Part shown: positions 46,663 to 52,320 of the stretch, in pieces
Layout: the number at the start of each line of letters is the position of its first letter
How positions within the stretch are numbered: position 1 is the first letter of the stretch
Source: Planctomycetota bacterium
Lineage (GTDB): Bacteria > Planctomycetota > PLA2 > JAEUHO01
Assembly (NCBI GenBank): GCA_965222115.1
Contig: CBDCTJ010000007.1
Span: forward strand, 768,001-832,000
Direction of reading: 5' to 3'
DNA: 64,000 bases
Position numbers and translations under genes: made by a program
Notes under the pieces: generated by a model
Database searches by the model: none
What the model saw: the letters and a program-made list of their open reading frames with translations, nothing else
What the model was told of the DNA's origin: nothing

Positions 46663-46742
46663 ATCGTGATGATCGTTCACCGAATCGAGCTCCGTTTGAC
46701 GCCACACGTGCGTTGCCCGAAGGGTCCGGTAGGATCTGCGCC

Positions 46743-47318
46743 ATGTTGGATCGCCAGACCCTTGTCCTGAATCGCTCGTGGACACCCGTCATGACGACGA
46801 CGGTGCGCCGTGCGATTGGGCTTATGGCGCGTGGCGCGGCATCGGCGGTGCATCCCAGCACGTACGAGACGGCGGATTGGGACGGATGGATCGAACGCGG
46901 TCCCGCCGGCACGGCGCGACTTCAAGGGGTCGATTTTCAGTTTCCCGTGCCAGAAGTTATTGTGCTGCGCACGTACAACGGGTTTCCGCGTGTCGCCGTT
47001 CGCTTCTCGCGTCGCAATGTGTATCGACGTGATGGATACGCCTGCGCCTACTGCGGGCATGCACCCCACGTTCGTGAACTCACGATTGATCACGTCGTAC
47101 CGCGCAGCCATGGCGGCTCAACGTCTTGGGAAAACTGTGTGACCGCGTGTGGCCGGTGCAATGCACGCAAGGCCGACCGGTCGCCCGAGAAGGCGGGGAT
47201 GTCGCTGCGCAGTCCACCGCGATCGCCGTCGTGGCCCGGTGGGCTTGACCCGTCGCTGCTTGCGTCCCGCCCCAACTGGCGGCGCTTCGTACCCACATCA
47301 CGTGCCATGCAGGCGTGA
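46743..47318 (+). CDS. HNH endonuclease
   Basis: LVLN, RDGYACAYCG, TIDHVVPRSHGG..SWENCVTACGRCNARK. Confidence 0.92.
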   Translation: MLDRQTLVLNRSWTPVMTTTVRRAIGLMARGAASAVHPSTYETADWDGWIERGPAGTARLQGVDFQFPVPEVIVLRTYNGFPRVAVRFSRRNVYRRDGYACAYCGHAPHVRELTIDHVVPRSHGGSTSWENCVTACGRCNARKADRSPEKAGMSLRSPPRSPSWPGGLDPSLLASRPNWRRFVPTSRAMQA

Positions 47319-47387
47319 ATCGCACGGTTTGGATATTGCGCGTTGGACTTCGCGCACTAAACGTTCGTCTGGAACGAGGAGGTCACT

Positions 47388-47558
47388 ATCACGTGGCATG
47401 AGGACGACACAATTCTTAGCGATGACGAATACGACAAGTTCGTGGCCAAGAACTTTGGACGTGACGGTCAGCCCAAAGGCGGGCCGCCTGTAGGACTCAT
47501 CTTGTTCTTTGCCGTGCTGGCGGCACTGATTGTTGCAGGACTCGTGCTATCCAAGTAG
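47388..47558 (+). CDS. Possible small single-TM protein, start uncertain
   Basis: Open frame ...DDEYDKFVAKNFG...LILFFAVLAALIVAGLVLSK*; strong RBS GAGGAGG at 47376 precedes ATC 47388; first canonical start is GTG 47442. Confidence 0.4.
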   Translation: MTWHEDDTILSDDEYDKFVAKNFGRDGQPKGGPPVGLILFFAVLAALIVAGLVLSK

Positions 47559-47699
47559 CCGCGTTGGACATTTGAAGAACCGATGGTGCGCGCCCTATGA
47601 ATAGTCTGGGACTCGCCCGGATGTCGGTATGCTCGGCCCACTACGTTTGGGCAGCTGTCCCATTTCGAGTGCGGTTCTAGAAGCAACGACCGTGGGAGC

Positions 47700-49334
47700 A
47701 TGCACGTGCAAAGTCGGGGCGATGAGCAACTTCGACTTGCGTTGTTGCATAGCGTGCGTCAGCGACCGCTGGACGTCGTGGACATCCTTCGAGAGTTGCG
47801 CAAGCGCGTGCCCGGCCTGATTCGCGGGCGGGAGGGTGTACTTCATCCTTTGCTCTTCCGCGCTCTGCAACAGGGTGACGTTTCGTTTGTGGGAACGTCG
47901 TCGCGCGGGCTGTCCCTCTATGGGCCCGAAGCCAAGCACGCAACGAAAAGGGACGAACCGGCGCACGGACTATCGCCGCAAGACGAACGACCGTTGCCGG
48001 CGCCGATTGCACCCGCGAGGCAGCGGGCCGTGTTGCACATGGCACGCGTGGTCAAGGACCCGTATCACCGCGGACGCGTCGTACGCGACATGCATGCCCA
48101 CATGGCCGATCTCGACGCCCTGCCGTCCGGCAACAGCCATCGATTTGGGAGCAAGAAAGCGATCCAGGCGGCGCTTCAACGGGTTTCGCGCGGCAAGCGC
48201 ACCGTGTTGGCGCCCGTATCCGCAGGTGACACCATCAAACGGTTTCTATTCAATGAAGGTCCGTGGATTGTGAGCACGCTGGCGCTGTTCTTTATCGCCA
48301 AGCTTTTCGTTGTGGACGTGTATCAGATTCCTTCAGGCAGCATGATGCCCACCCTTGTCACGGGCGATCGCATCGTGGTGCGTAAGTTCGCCACCGCTCG
48401 TGCTGAGGAGCGTTGGCGCATATGGACGTTTCAACGTGAGCCCAAGACCTACGTCAAACGCATGGTGGGCTTACCGGGCGAGCGAATTGCGATCCACGGG
48501 GGTGACATCTACATCAATGGCGTCATTGCCGAAAAACCCGTTGCGCTCAATCAAACGCTCCGTCGTCCGCTAGGCCATTGGGACTTTCGGCGCGCGGAGG
48601 ATGTTCGCGCTACATGGCGTCGTACGTCGTCGGGCGGCACCCATCGTTGGGTTTGGGATGGCGGTCGGCTCTCGCCCGATTGGCGCCCCGATCATCAAAC
48701 GTCATCCTATGCTATTCCCTTGCTCGATGCCTATGCAACGCTTCATGCCGAGCGGCCCAAGGATGGGCGACTTGCCATCACACTTGCACGCATGGCCAAG
48801 ACATCGGGCGAAACAGCGTGGACTTTTGAACTTGCGCCGGAGGGTGCGCGGGTGATTGAACGCGTGACCGCCGTTTCGGTTCCAGGGCACGCGCCGGTGC
48901 CCACACAAGAACGCGTGCTTTGGAAAGACAAACGCGGCGGAGACGCCCACGGAACGCTTGCGATGACGTTGGCGTTGATTGACGGCAATCTGTCGGCCGC
49001 CGTGGAGGATCTTTCGTGGAAGGGTCGGGTGAACGCGCCGCGCCATGGGCTGCGATTCGAAGTCGCCGCCACCGAGGCGTCGCTACATTCGTTTGCCCTC
49101 GACGCCGACCAACATTGGAGCAGCGTGGGGGTACATGCCGTCACGGATATTGACGACGATCCCACCACCGCCGGGCACACCCTCGGCGAACACAGCTTCT
49201 TTTTCCTGGGCGACAACACCACCAACAGCGGTGATAGTCGTATTCGAAGCCTGGGCGACGTCCATCGCAGCGAACTCATTGCGCCCGTGATCTTCAAAGT
49301 GTGGCCGCCTTCGGACCTCGGCGTGCCAAAGTAG
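47700..49334 (+). CDS. lepB: Signal peptidase I (S26) with N-terminal PadR-like and HAAS-like extension
   Basis: IPSGSMMPTL (Ser), YVKRMVGLPGE (Lys), LGDNTTNSGDSR; about 180-aa cytoplasmic N-terminal extension. Confidence 0.85.
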   Translation: MHVQSRGDEQLRLALLHSVRQRPLDVVDILRELRKRVPGLIRGREGVLHPLLFRALQQGDVSFVGTSSRGLSLYGPEAKHATKRDEPAHGLSPQDERPLPAPIAPARQRAVLHMARVVKDPYHRGRVVRDMHAHMADLDALPSGNSHRFGSKKAIQAALQRVSRGKRTVLAPVSAGDTIKRFLFNEGPWIVSTLALFFIAKLFVVDVYQIPSGSMMPTLVTGDRIVVRKFATARAEERWRIWTFQREPKTYVKRMVGLPGERIAIHGGDIYINGVIAEKPVALNQTLRRPLGHWDFRRAEDVRATWRRTSSGGTHRWVWDGGRLSPDWRPDHQTSSYAIPLLDAYATLHAERPKDGRLAITLARMAKTSGETAWTFELAPEGARVIERVTAVSVPGHAPVPTQERVLWKDKRGGDAHGTLAMTLALIDGNLSAAVEDLSWKGRVNAPRHGLRFEVAATEASLHSFALDADQHWSSVGVHAVTDIDDDPTTAGHTLGEHSFFFLGDNTTNSGDSRIRSLGDVHRSELIAPVIFKVWPPSDLGVPK

Positions 49335-49445
49335 CCCAAGCAGAAGGCACAACTCCCCAATCCGCGACGGGTATCAGCAGCCACGATCCTTGCCGGCGCG
49401 GGATCGCCCGCGCGCGTACAATCGAATGGCCTTCGATTCGATCGA

Positions 49446-50210
49446 ATGTGCGACCCAAACATCAAGGAGTGTCGTCTGTCTCGTTCTGCCGACCGCATTC
49501 CAACGGACGCCGTGGCGGAGGCGCGCGAACCCGCCGCGAAGTCTGGCCCACGGCGCGCTTCGCCGGGCAGCCTTTGCGTCGAAGATCAAGCGCTCATGCG
49601 TGCGATTCAGGGGGGCGATCACGACGCGTTTGAACAGCTCGTTCGCAAGTATGAAGGGTTGGTGTTTTCGCTGGCTCGTCGCTACCTCGGATCCCGCTAC
49701 GACGGACTCGAGGACGTTGCGCAGCAAGTGTTCTTGCGCGTGTACCGCTCCGCCCATACCTACACGCCCCGAGCCAAGGTCAAGACGTGGCTGTTTAGCG
49801 TAACTGTGAACGCGTGCCTGAATGAGATTCGGCGTTTGCGCGCGCAGAAAAACGCGCGATCAAACTCGTTCACGGCTGTGTTTGGCGAAAGCGAAGATGG
49901 GCCTCGCATTGAGGACCGCCGCGAGATGAGTACCGCAGCGGCGCTCGATGTGCAGGCGCTAGAGCGCCGTGTCGAACAGGCGGTCGATGGTCTTCCGGAA
50001 CAACAGCGGCTGGCGCTGATCTTGGTTCGCTTCCACGATTGCAGTTACGAAGAGATCGCCGAAACGATGGAGACTACGGTGCCGGCCGTGAAGTCGTTGC
50101 TGACCCGCGCCCGCACCAATTTGCGCAAAGCGCTTGCCGAGCCGGTTGCGGCCTCGCCCCTTGGGGCAAGGTCTGAATCGGCCGCATCCGGAAGGGAGAT
50201 GCCCGAGTGA
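49446..50210 (+). CDS. ECF (group 4) sigma factor
   Basis: GD.DAFEQLV, EDVAQQVF, KTWLF, LPEQQR...SYEEIA...VKSLL.RAR. Confidence 0.93.
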   Translation: MCDPNIKECRLSRSADRIPTDAVAEAREPAAKSGPRRASPGSLCVEDQALMRAIQGGDHDAFEQLVRKYEGLVFSLARRYLGSRYDGLEDVAQQVFLRVYRSAHTYTPRAKVKTWLFSVTVNACLNEIRRLRAQKNARSNSFTAVFGESEDGPRIEDRREMSTAAALDVQALERRVEQAVDGLPEQQRLALILVRFHDCSYEEIAETMETTVPAVKSLLTRARTNLRKALAEPVAASPLGARSESAASGREMPE

Positions 50211-50438: not shown

Positions 50439-50981
50439 GTGATGACCGAGTTAGACAGGAAGATCGATCGGGCGCTCTCGCTATATCGCGACGAGCCGGT
50501 GCCCACGGGCTTTTCGTCGCGCGTGCGCGCAAGGCTCGCTGATTCCTCGAAGTTGCCATCCACGAAGGCGTATGAGCCCGCGCCCAAGTTGCGTGCAGTA
50601 GGTGGTAGGCCGCGTAGGCCGTCGTGGCTGCTTGCCGCGGCCGCGCTTGTGCTTGGTGCGGGAGTGATGTGGGGTGTGCTTCGTGCAACCGATCAAGGGG
50701 CGCGTGATCAGGCGGACGCCACTCATCAATCAGCAACCAACCAATCAGCAATCAACCGTGATGCAGCGCTTGAGCCGTTGTTGGCCGAAGTGCCTGCCGA
50801 TCTGTTGCCGCATGTTGAGTTCTTGGCCACGCTCGATGACGATTCGTTTGAAGTCGTGATGGACGGCGCCTGGAGTCCCGATGGTCTGCTTGCCGATGGC
50901 AGTGCTATTGAAGGCAGTGCTATTGAAGGCAGTGCTATTGAAGGCAGTGCTATTGATGGCGGCGGTGCGGACGAGGGGTAG
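50439..50981 (+). CDS. Putative single-TM anti-sigma factor
   Basis: EPVPTGFSSRV, LLAAAALVLG TM, acidic C-terminus; true start may be ATG 50332 if a C is missing near 50385. Confidence 0.7.
   Translation: MMTELDRKIDRALSLYRDEPVPTGFSSRVRARLADSSKLPSTKAYEPAPKLRAVGGRPRRPSWLLAAAALVLGAGVMWGVLRATDQGARDQADATHQSATNQSAINRDAALEPLLAEVPADLLPHVEFLATLDDDSFEVVMDGAWSPDGLLADGSAIEGSAIEGSAIEGSAIDGGGADEG
50898..50957 (+). repeat. 4 x 15-bp tandem repeat (GGCAGTGCTATTGAA) encoding GSAIE/D
   Basis: Direct inspection. Confidence 0.95.
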
Positions 50982-50988
50982 TTCATTC

Positions 50989-52320
50989 ATGCACGTTCGT
51001 CTAACTACCTATGGGATGCGGCTCGTCGTATTGCTGCTCGTCGGGTGTCTTGGCGTGTGTCTCGATGCGGCGTTGCCGGCGTGGGCGGACGATGGTGATA
51101 CACCGGAACGTGAAGTAGAGAGAGGCCGTGACGATCAAGAAGGCAAGGCAAGCGCCGTTTCGCGTTTGTCCGCCACCGAACTTGCTTTGGTGAAAAAGCG
51201 CGTGCCCACATGGGACTCGCTCGACACGTCGGCGCGTGAACGCATTGCGCGCAGCGTCTTGCATCTTCGACGCATGACGAAAGACGAGCGCAATGTCTTT
51301 CATCAACGACTGAAGCGATTCAAAGAAATGCGGCGGCGCCACCCCAAGGGGCGCCGAAGTATGCGTGACGTACGCGGTTCGTTTGAGGTCGCCAATGCGT
51401 TTGGCCGCCTACTTCTAAACGATATGCCGGGCGAGGTTCAGCGCGTGTGGAAGCAACAGGGCCTTTCATCTCGGATGGCGAGCCTTGTTGCGTGGCGTGA
51501 GTTTCAGTCACAGGTTCGCAATCGATTGGTCGCGCGCGTGGAGCGCGAGTGGACGTCTGGCGATGCGGCGCCCGCATGGGTGCCTGCACCCGCGAGAGCG
51601 CCACTGATTAAAGCGATGACACGCTTCCATAAAATCCGTGCGGCGGGGAATGCGAACGAGTCCAAGTCTGGCATTCGGCGAGCGCGCCATGCGATCGGTC
51701 GCCTGTTGTTGAGCGCGGAACACAAACGCATCGTCGCAAAGCACCACGTGTTGGATGCGAACAAGGTGGCGCGTGCATGGATGCATCGTTTTCCCGAAGA
51801 CGTTGCGGCTACGCGCGAGCGACTTGTGCGCGAGGGTGCCTCAATGGTGCGCGCGGCCATGGAGCGGCACGGGCGAGGCAAGGGCGCATCCGGTTTTGGC
51901 GGCCCGCGTGGCGCCTTGTCGTTTCTGCGTGGCGGCCCGCTCGAGCTAGCGACACGCGCGCAGGGGCTGTCGATTCTGGAGCGCATGGCACGTCACGACA
52001 CATTTGAAACGCCCGAGAAGCGTGCAGCAATTGTTGCGTTGCTACGAGAGCAGTTGCATACCCACTTTGGCGTTCCCGTGGATACATTCGACGCGCTTCC
52101 CGGCGTGGAGTCGCCCCAGGAGCGCCGACGCGCGTTTGGGAAGCTGATTCGAACGTATGTGATGCCCAAGCTGAAGCAGCAAGGCAACCAGCGTGGCCGT
52201 CGGCGTGGGCGCGATGGGCGTCGAGGGGAACACCGTGGCGAGCGTCGAGGGAATGACCGAGATGGTGGCGGTCCGCCGCGCCGCGATCTACCTCCGGGTG
52301 GCGAGGAATCGCCGCGGTAA
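50989..52320 (+). CDS. Secreted basic helical protein (DUF3106-like N-terminal part)
   Basis: Signal peptide ending AWA; W.SL....RERI...LRRMT.DER pattern; follows sigma/anti-sigma. Confidence 0.6.
   Translation: MHVRLTTYGMRLVVLLLVGCLGVCLDAALPAWADDGDTPEREVERGRDDQEGKASAVSRLSATELALVKKRVPTWDSLDTSARERIARSVLHLRRMTKDERNVFHQRLKRFKEMRRRHPKGRRSMRDVRGSFEVANAFGRLLLNDMPGEVQRVWKQQGLSSRMASLVAWREFQSQVRNRLVARVEREWTSGDAAPAWVPAPARAPLIKAMTRFHKIRAAGNANESKSGIRRARHAIGRLLLSAEHKRIVAKHHVLDANKVARAWMHRFPEDVAATRERLVREGASMVRAAMERHGRGKGASGFGGPRGALSFLRGGPLELATRAQGLSILERMARHDTFETPEKRAAIVALLREQLHTHFGVPVDTFDALPGVESPQERRRAFGKLIRTYVMPKLKQQGNQRGRRRGRDGRRGEHRGERRGNDRDGGGPPRRDLPPGGEESPR

Follow-up and report, generated by a model that had tools for sequence, protein, structure and literature searches.

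In a stretch of 64,000 nucleotides (nt) from a Planctomycetota bacterium (contig CBDCTJ010000007.1, positions 768,001 to 832,000 of the forward strand; called the window in the following), we analyzed a single open reading frame (ORF) of 544 amino acids that combines a winged helix-turn-helix (wHTH) of the PadR type, a helical domain resembling HAAS, one predicted transmembrane (TM) segment and an S26 signal peptidase I. We read this protein as a single-chain PadR-HAAS signaling pair on a type I signal peptidase, which may link the state of the peptidase or of the membrane to transcription. In our judgment the chances for and against this reading are about evenly balanced. The gene, the conservation of its fusion, the folds and family affinities of its domains, the intact catalytic boxes and its paralogy to other signal peptidases are matters of observation. 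The parts and the principle of PadR-HAAS pairing are known; the fusion in cis and the peptidase as an attached module are new.

The initial annotation, made from the letters of the DNA, had proposed that one ORF joins all these domains. This was borne out: the frame is uninterrupted and bears the motif strings on which the proposal was based. The GTG at 47706 is probably the start codon, since the relatives and a database copy of 542 amino acids begin two codons later, at the third codon; the protein would then also comprise 542 amino acids. We considered that an assembly error or an indel might have merged a regulator gene with a peptidase gene. Sequencing contigs from three runs (two samples of one study, possibly the source of the window itself) showed no differing letter and no indel across 47300–49500. 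One contig covered this entire region, and another one covered 47889–48453 with the junctions between wHTH, HAAS-like domain, TM segment and S26 domain. The depth of these contigs was low (3–5), but no evidence was found in favor of an artifact. The unbroken frame recurs in four families, where dozens of genomes and metagenome proteins, independent of each other, contain it, and it is due to this conservation, not to the contigs, that we exclude an assembly artifact. We regard this explanation as refuted, its remaining chance being negligible. Neither the relatives nor the contigs presented separate genes, and proteins of the same architecture are present in public databases, where they are unannotated.

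The structure of the N-terminal part was predicted by AlphaFold2 (AF2) from window residues 1–190 together with 42 relatives (43 sequences). The self match P0001, the partial sequences P0070–P0073 and P0077, and the low-complexity sequence P0078 were excluded from the alignment. The overall predicted local distance difference test score (pLDDT) was 89.7 and the predicted template modeling score (pTM) was 0.85. Across residues 1–80, pLDDT reached 94–98, and the model showed three helices (6–21, 26–36 and 45–58) followed by a wing of two strands (62–66 and 72–75), which is the wHTH fold that the initial annotation had suspected. Within the family D8, E45 and H49 are invariant and P23, G46, G70 and Y74 are nearly so; the recognition-helix residues E45, G46 and H49 were kept across more than 40 sequences. 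When residues 1–80 were compared to PDB structures by Foldseek, the top rows were PadR of B. subtilis, LmrR, BC4206 and other PadR-like proteins together with Fur DNA-binding domains (E 0.04–0.5, root mean square deviation (rmsd) 2.2–3.5 Å, 67–75 columns).

To assign the wHTH to a family, we relied on profile-profile comparison by hhalign. The reference sets were taken from the same phylum and contained 30 PadR domains (those with loci among 37 listed matches), 29 HAAS, 30 BlaI and 28 MarR domains; two loci were omitted from the MarR set, one of them for a stop codon. Residues 1–80 matched PadR with a probability of 78.6% and a score of 30.3, compared to scores of 15.6 for BlaI, 11.9 for MarR, 14.7 for HAAS and 10.7 for reversed PadR. 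The profile of a sister family (see below) matched PadR with 89.2% and a score of 39.3, and the merged profile of both families with 93.1% and a score of 43.5. In all PadR comparisons, the controls stayed at 15.6–20.7 (BlaI), 11.9–13.9 (MarR) and 10.7–13.6 (reversed PadR), with probabilities of 0.3–4%. As a yardstick, genuine wHTH families score 34–58 against each other. On this scale the window family is a distant relative of PadR, and PadR is the sole sequence affinity of residues 1–80. The PadR-like N-terminus claimed by the initial annotation is thus supported at the level of fold and profile.

The wHTH is followed by a linker of 11–24 residues across the family, with 28% Pro; AF2 confidence was low from residue 76 to residue 104. 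The juxtamembrane domain behind it, with a net charge of about +7 for residues 105–186, was predicted to form helices 105–115, 121–140 and 146–149/152–163 and an extra helix 175–186. The third helix is interrupted at the invariant G150 (FG motif), both in the two-domain model and in a model of residues 100–190 alone (pLDDT 85.4). According to the part of PMC11237479 available to us, HAAS domains consist of three helices, the third of which is kinked at a conserved GxP motif; they are located N-terminal to membrane or sensor parts and are obligatorily paired with a standalone PadR-like wHTH. The same part of that paper unites HAAS with DUF1048 (PDB 2O3L). By hhalign, residues 100–190 matched HAAS with 49.7% and a score of 25.7, while scores of 8.2–13.5 were obtained for PadR, BlaI, MarR and reversed HAAS. 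The sister-family profile reached 62.9% and a score of 31.0 (BlaI, MarR and reversed controls 11–21), and the merged profile 32.6% and a score of 26.5. Overall, the HAAS comparisons gave scores of 25.7–31.0 (33–63%) compared to 8–15 for the controls. Residues 105–165 thus appear to match HAAS weakly but specifically, and the segment in which the initial annotation had seen a HAAS or permease-prefix motif is predicted to be a three-helix unit with a kink at G150. The domain is positioned between the PadR-like domain and the TM anchor of the same chain. The orientation of the protein in the membrane is probably N-in/C-out, as the Ser box follows the anchor like in known type I signal peptidases.

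The peptidase takes up the C-terminal two thirds of the protein. Its score was 97.3 bits with Pfam Peptidase_S26 PF10502 (cut-off 22.9) and 99.3 bits with TIGR02227 (cut-off 47). The strings IPSGSMMPTL, YVKRMVGLPGE and GDNTTNSGDSR can each be aligned, residue by residue, to signal peptidase I chains of E. coli. The last of these boxes lies near residue 505, and about 230 residues separate it from the Lys box. The Ser/Lys dyad corresponds to the catalytic residues of E. coli signal peptidase I. In an alignment of 38 relatives, Ser214 was invariant and the Lys column was conserved to at least 90%. The boxes are complete, as the initial annotation had stated; the active site appears to be intact, and we propose that the protein is a working type I signal peptidase.

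The host genome (4.55 Mb, 90% complete) harbors three S26 genes, encoding a protein of 525 amino acids directly after lepA, the fused protein and a protein of 353 amino acids. The lepA-adjacent gene is in the classical housekeeping position, and the fused enzyme would be a second, non-housekeeping signal peptidase. Aligned over 396 residues, a stretch that takes in the long insert, the two proteins are 24% identical (E 4e-17). In a quick maximum-likelihood tree of 25 S26 domains (six genomes and extra fused members) the 11 fused domains clustered: two label changes were needed, strongly supported branches allowed one, and 0 of 500 shuffles were as low. The fused domains were placed apart from the lepA-type clade, and a long-branch protein of 196 amino acids was placed beside the window's pair. 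This quick tree would agree with a fusion that arose once and long ago, but does not demonstrate it.

We determined how widely the fusion is distributed. An exhaustive phmmer search with residues 1–190 against 1.84 billion representative proteins returned 47 hits at E ≤ 0.001. Proteins of 483–570 amino acids with the domain at the extreme N-terminus made up 36 of them, and the other 11 were short or N-truncated fragments and one low-complexity match. Relative loci were gathered through the conserved HNH neighbor, and genes in high-GC loci were chosen by GC content at third codon positions (GC3). Of the 24 same-family genomes, 21 carried the fusion, with nearly all frames having about 540–600 amino acids; the single query found it in 0 of 16 genomes outside the family. 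A word-indexed search with the whole protein gave only two full-length relatives, and such searches with a PadR-HAAS protein of the own genome and with a canonical fused relative gave almost nothing besides the queries. Frames of 919–969 amino acids in three relatives suggested an extra N-terminal domain. We rejected this domain as a high-GC read-through over a separate major facilitator superfamily (MFS) transporter gene in another frame.

A sister family of the same order carries an S26 gene upstream of the orthologous extracytoplasmic function (ECF) sigma factor gene in 8 of 8 loci. Its proteins have about 500–530 amino acids, and their N-terminal part was overlooked by the single-sequence search. 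A profile from seven of these proteins (one locus with an ambiguous frame was left out) matched the profile of the window family with 96.3% over 147 columns comprising both domains. A hidden Markov model (HMM) built from both families was run over 301 genomes, all from Planctomycetota, and matched 40 of them. It found 9 of 10 genomes of the same family, 5 of 5 of the sister family and long frames in two further families (f35 and f55). About twenty short frames (93–250 amino acids) were matched by the winged-helix part alone. Several of these were standalone Pfam PadR genes, e.g., G053:C410 and G039:C69 (E 1e-7 to 1e-3 per genome).

The six long frames of f35 and f55 (586–737 amino acids) all consist of a PadR-like domain, a helical domain, a TM segment and S26. 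PadR was above the cut-off in two of the six (38.1 and 37.7 bits), reached E 7e-5 to 3e-3 in three more and was not matched in the last one; HAAS was matched in one of the six at E 0.0088, and S26 in all. They bear the PadR strings LYPVL...G...W...RRQY and the HAAS-type motifs LGDP/FGD, and one distant fused relative is an NCBI protein with precomputed PF03551 and PF10502 matches. We concluded that the fusion is the standard form of this N-terminal domain and not an artifact. The domain reading holds because the structure prediction, the controlled profile-profile comparison and the distant relatives with canonical PadR and HAAS sequence support it together. The coordinates of all features are given in Table 1.

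Table 1. Position and basis of the features of the fused gene and of its neighbors in the window.
Feature	Position	Strand	Basis
Whole gene: PadR-like wHTH, HAAS-like domain, TM anchor and S26 signal peptidase I	47700..49334	+	ORF, Pfam/TIGRFAM profiles, relatives
PadR-like wHTH, residues 1–80	47700..47939	+	AF2, Foldseek, hhalign
Pro-rich low-confidence linker, residues 81–104	47940..48011	+	AF2, alignment
Helical juxtamembrane domain, residues 105–186; HAAS-like core 105–163	48012..48257	+	AF2, hhalign
Hydrophobic anchor, residues ~189–208, single, just before the Ser box	48264..48323	+	Sequence reading; S26 profiles align from 189
S26 peptidase domain, predicted periplasmic, residues 209–544	48324..49334	+	Pfam, TIGRFAM, alignments
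Catalytic Ser214	48339-48341	+	Box alignment
Catalytic Lys253	48456-48458	+	Box alignment
Small ORF: acidic N-terminal part, C-terminal TM helix	47388..47561	+	Conserved; no Pfam family
ECF sigma factor, directly downstream	49446..50210	+	Pfam Sigma70_r2, r4_2, ECF
180-aa protein, one TM segment, anti-sigma position	50439..50981	+	No family match
Secreted DUF3106 protein	50989..52320	+	Pfam; signal-peptide-like segment

In the mechanism that we propose, the cytoplasmic N-terminus would act as a divergent PadR-type winged helix, connected by the flexible Pro-rich linker to a HAAS-type domain right under the membrane. One TM helix would tie the HAAS-type domain to the periplasmic S26 domain with its complete Ser/Lys site. 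Substrate load or secretion or envelope stress may change the peptidase domain or the membrane near the anchor, and this state would be the input. The signal would pass via the TM helix to the HAAS domain, which would hold or free the tethered winged helix. Transcription would then be altered by a regulator that stays bound to the membrane. Its targets would most likely be its own operon and possibly the neighboring ECF sigma module. We infer the topology, the DNA binding, the targets and the direction of signaling, the last one because of the analogy with the published, still hypothetical dyad model. In a more specific version of the proposal, the signal peptidase itself would be the sensor: an active site occupied by precursors (secretion load) would be relayed via the TM helix and HAAS to the tethered PadR-type domain, and transcription would be adjusted at the membrane without a kinase, a sigma factor or release. 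This version is possible, although we consider it rather doubtful. The initial annotation had described a membrane-tethered regulator that couples extracytoplasmic proteolysis to transcription. Its reading of the domains stood, and the function it assigned is a reasonable proposal and the leading one.

Several observations weigh against the signaling pair. The single window sequence scored 11.7–13.4 bits (E 0.27 at 11.7 bits) with the Pfam PadR model PF03551, below the cut-off of 27. Such a score alone is no better than chance, and significance is reached only through profiles. PadR was reached at E ≤ 1 by 4 of 43 family members, the best with 8.9e-4. Where PadR proteins have a conserved Tyr in the recognition helix, the window family has His. 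Foldseek against PDB gave no match at E ≤ 0.001 for the two-domain model or the second-domain model. A second structural search (VIA) gave Z 6–7 for the winged helix, tied with cullin WHB, Fur and histone H1 domains. As the structure searches tie among many winged helices, they show the fold and not the family. No significant N-terminal match was obtained by hmmsearch with the family profiles against PDB sequences (LmrR chains at E 1.6–1.9), and no usable match by the ESM Atlas for residues 1–190.

The HAAS assignment is also affected by such points. The HAAS model PF22564 (cut-off 27 bits) did not match the window protein and matched 1 of 43 family members, at E 0.081. The GxP proline is present in just 11 of 41 members and is replaced by Lys in the window protein. 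The DUF1048 structures 2o4t (Z 5.5, rmsd 3.1, 65 aligned) and 2o3l (Z 4.7) ranked 2 and 8 of 48,161 chains, but Z values of 4.7–5.5 are within the chance range for helical models; the ranking agrees with the prior expectation and is suggestive, not proof. A search for shared k-mers and inverted repeats upstream of the gene in 16–19 loci revealed no common operator motif, and the k-mers enriched there were coding sequence of the small ORF. Furthermore, the covalent tether means that PadR is not simply releasable as the dyad model proposes, and the evidence for signaling consists of sequence and predicted structure.

The divergence of the winged helix below the Pfam cut-off, the change from Tyr to His and the lack of a conserved operator are also what would be expected if the N-terminal domains of a second signal peptidase no longer bound DNA. 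They may instead form a protein-binding or regulatory module, which serves ligand-controlled inside-to-outside control or docking to the translocon and has no transcriptional output. The net charge of the wHTH averages just +1.6 across the family (range −4 to +11), winged helices often bind proteins, and the VIA top rows were cullin WHB domains. The protein also evolves about twice as fast as its neighbors, with identities of 30–39% among same-family genomes compared to 53–66% for the HNH protein and the sigma factor. However, the recognition-helix residues named above were kept across the family, the wHTH of the window is net positive (+5, counted from the sequence), and the same architecture occurs with canonical PadR in other families. 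In addition, the available part of PMC11237479 knows HAAS solely as a partner of PadR-type transcription factors. On balance we consider a loss of DNA binding unlikely. If the winged helix binds no DNA, the finding reduces to a lineage-specific decorated signal peptidase.

The gene neighborhood suggested another role: the protein may be a site-1 protease dedicated to the ECF system next to it. It would then cleave the anti-sigma-like TM protein or the DUF3106 protein, with the cytoplasmic domains only tuning or localizing the enzyme. The gene order within the family (20 loci) is two hypotheticals, AMP-ligase, HNH, fused peptidase, ECF sigma, DUF3106 and nitrilase. The sigma gene was next downstream in 17 of 17 same-family loci reaching past the peptidase, with a gap of 3 nt in one. 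In all eight sister-family loci, the S26 gene was located 1.2–1.5 kb upstream of the sigma gene, and in one f35 genome an ECF/zf-HC2 pair was present about 5 kb away. There is also a precedent for signal peptidase as a site-1 protease, as described in the available parts of PMC4183432, PMC6066255 and PMC8844934. On the other hand, a NUDIX gene of opposite orientation lies between the peptidase and sigma genes of the sister family, no ECF sigma gene was found nearby in the four f55 loci, and the 180-aa TM protein has no match among anti-sigma families. The flanking genes are all syntenic within the order, so the adjacency may be just inherited, and the attached PadR-HAAS pair would be left unexplained. 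A role as site-1 protease is compatible with the signaling reading and does not exclude it; as an explanation of the protein it is improbable.

The flanking genes differed in the other families. An ATG22-type MFS gene is located upstream in the sister family, and an MFS gene is again upstream in f35. In f55 (four loci), the neighbors encode an Rce1-like CPBP protease and an Abhydrolase_11 protein. No neighbor gene was constant across the four families, which fits a self-contained unit. The CPBP protease gene of f55 (L261 8733-9329, L262 8543-9190) is upstream on the same strand and the Abhydrolase_11 gene is downstream, followed in two loci by a molybdopterin oxidoreductase-pentapeptide fusion. 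An ATG22-like MFS gene adjoins the fused gene in three same-family genera, in the sister family and in f35 (L171 4057-6219, L219 4883-6382, L239 724-2355 on the − strand, L260 8963-10258). In those three same-family genera it occupies the place of the small ORF.

The small ORF was present between the HNH and peptidase genes in 15 of 18 relatives examined and in the window. It contains the motifs …DDLP-THLDD-EY… and then G-PPV, and it ends from 157 nt before to 13 nt past the start of the peptidase gene, with an overlap of 4 nt in four loci; in many relatives it thus abuts or overlaps that start. The frame of the window copy opens at 47361, and the first canonical start, GTG at 47442, gives 38 amino acids; an ATC at 47388, six bases past GAGGAGG, would yield 56 amino acids, and the relatives have 56–60. 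In one locus (L024 4649-4969), the small ORF has an added N-terminal zinc-ribbon (CPVC...CKAC). The spacer between the HNH gene and the small ORF contains a perfect inverted repeat (TGCGCG-N8-CGCGCA, 47337-47356), which had no counterpart in 15 other loci scanned. The HNH protein (201 amino acids, 46713-47318, +) shows 45–67% identity across Planctomycetota and some metagenome-assembled genomes of Eisenbacteria, with at least 566 confirmed relatives. Its HNH core scored sub-threshold against IscB and Cas9d models, and outside the clade the HNH gene has different neighbors. Downstream of the sigma gene, the 180-aa TM protein has four tandem AIEGS units at its C-terminal end. Its frame is overlapped by the long ORF (50881-52320) of the DUF3106 protein, which probably starts at a Met near 50989; a signal peptide with AWA as its last residues follows this Met.

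The own genome also carries a canonical PadR (E 1.6e-19) and a HAAS (E 1.3e-4) in one frame (G000:C7, about 2833.6–2835.2 kb; L035 1282-2538). The C-terminal part of this frame looks non-membrane, and an overlapping frame (L035 2172-2843) is TM-rich. A frameshift, a misassembly or a programmed shift could account for this arrangement; genome G015 has a similar PadR frame of 523 amino acids.

Among known systems, the fused protein is most easily compared to the PadR-HAAS dyads encoded by two genes. On the basis of comparative genomics only, the part of PMC11237479 available to us puts them forward as an alternative to two-component signaling. As in those dyads, a PadR-like wHTH is followed by a HAAS-like domain before the membrane or sensor part, and the third helix is predicted to be kinked at a conserved Gly. 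Different from them, both domains are part of one polypeptide here, while HAAS always occurs with a standalone PadR in the paper as far as available. A further difference is the attached S26 peptidase, and the window copy has diverged so far that neither Pfam model recognizes it. The main text of PMC11237479 (supplements aside) contains no mention of peptidase, S26, LepB, protease or Planctomycet, and full-text literature searches found no description of an architecture of PadR, HAAS and signal peptidase. Dyads of separate genes are common in this phylum, with PadR matches adjoining HAAS matches in several genomes.

A second comparison is provided by Listeria, where an FtsW/RodA homolog carries HAAS/DUF1700 and is controlled by a PadR repressor (PMC6624303, part of the text available). 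The common features are HAAS/DUF1700 on an envelope enzyme and a PadR-type regulator as partner. The Listeria enzyme is, as far as described in that part, a multi-TM SEDS protein instead of a peptidase, and its regulator is encoded by a separate gene. According to the accessible parts of PMC4183432 and PMC8844934, signal peptidase makes the site-1 cut in the anti-sigma factors RsiV and RsiP. In the RsiV/RsiP systems an S26 peptidase is functionally tied to an ECF sigma pathway, and here the genes are neighbors. The enzymes of those systems are housekeeping peptidases, and no dedicated paralog or regulator domain is known to take part.

With E. coli LepB (1B12, 1T7D) the protein shares the S26 fold signature, the Ser and Lys boxes and the position of the catalytic Ser right after the predicted TM anchor. 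The large insertion is shared with the housekeeping LepB of the same genome. Unlike LepB, the fused protein has a two-domain extension of 187 residues, predicted to be cytoplasmic, and it exists as a paralog beside the lepA-linked lepB. BlaR1/BlaI and MecR1/MecI combine a membrane protein that has an extracytoplasmic sensor or enzyme domain with a winged-helix regulator. BlaR1 has a zinc protease on the cytoplasmic side, and this enzyme cuts a repressor that is a separate protein. In ToxR and CadC, a single TM helix ties a DNA-binding domain of the OmpR type to the membrane, and there is no enzyme. The wHTH of the fused protein is without sequence relation to BlaI, as the hhalign scores against this family are at control level.

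The natural fusion fixes the stoichiometry and proximity of PadR and HAAS and thereby gives structural studies and mutagenesis a compact target. If our reading is right, the single chain would allow study of the still hypothetical transfer of a signal from HAAS to PadR. The enzyme on the extracytoplasmic side is well understood, its inhibitors and substrates are known, and the input side can therefore be manipulated. In the more specific version of the proposal, a signal peptidase would have a sensor role for the first time. A regulatory role would be added to signal peptidase paralogs, which are usually seen as redundant housekeeping enzymes. The finding would also bear on the control of envelope and secretion in Planctomycetota, whose regulation is poorly known.

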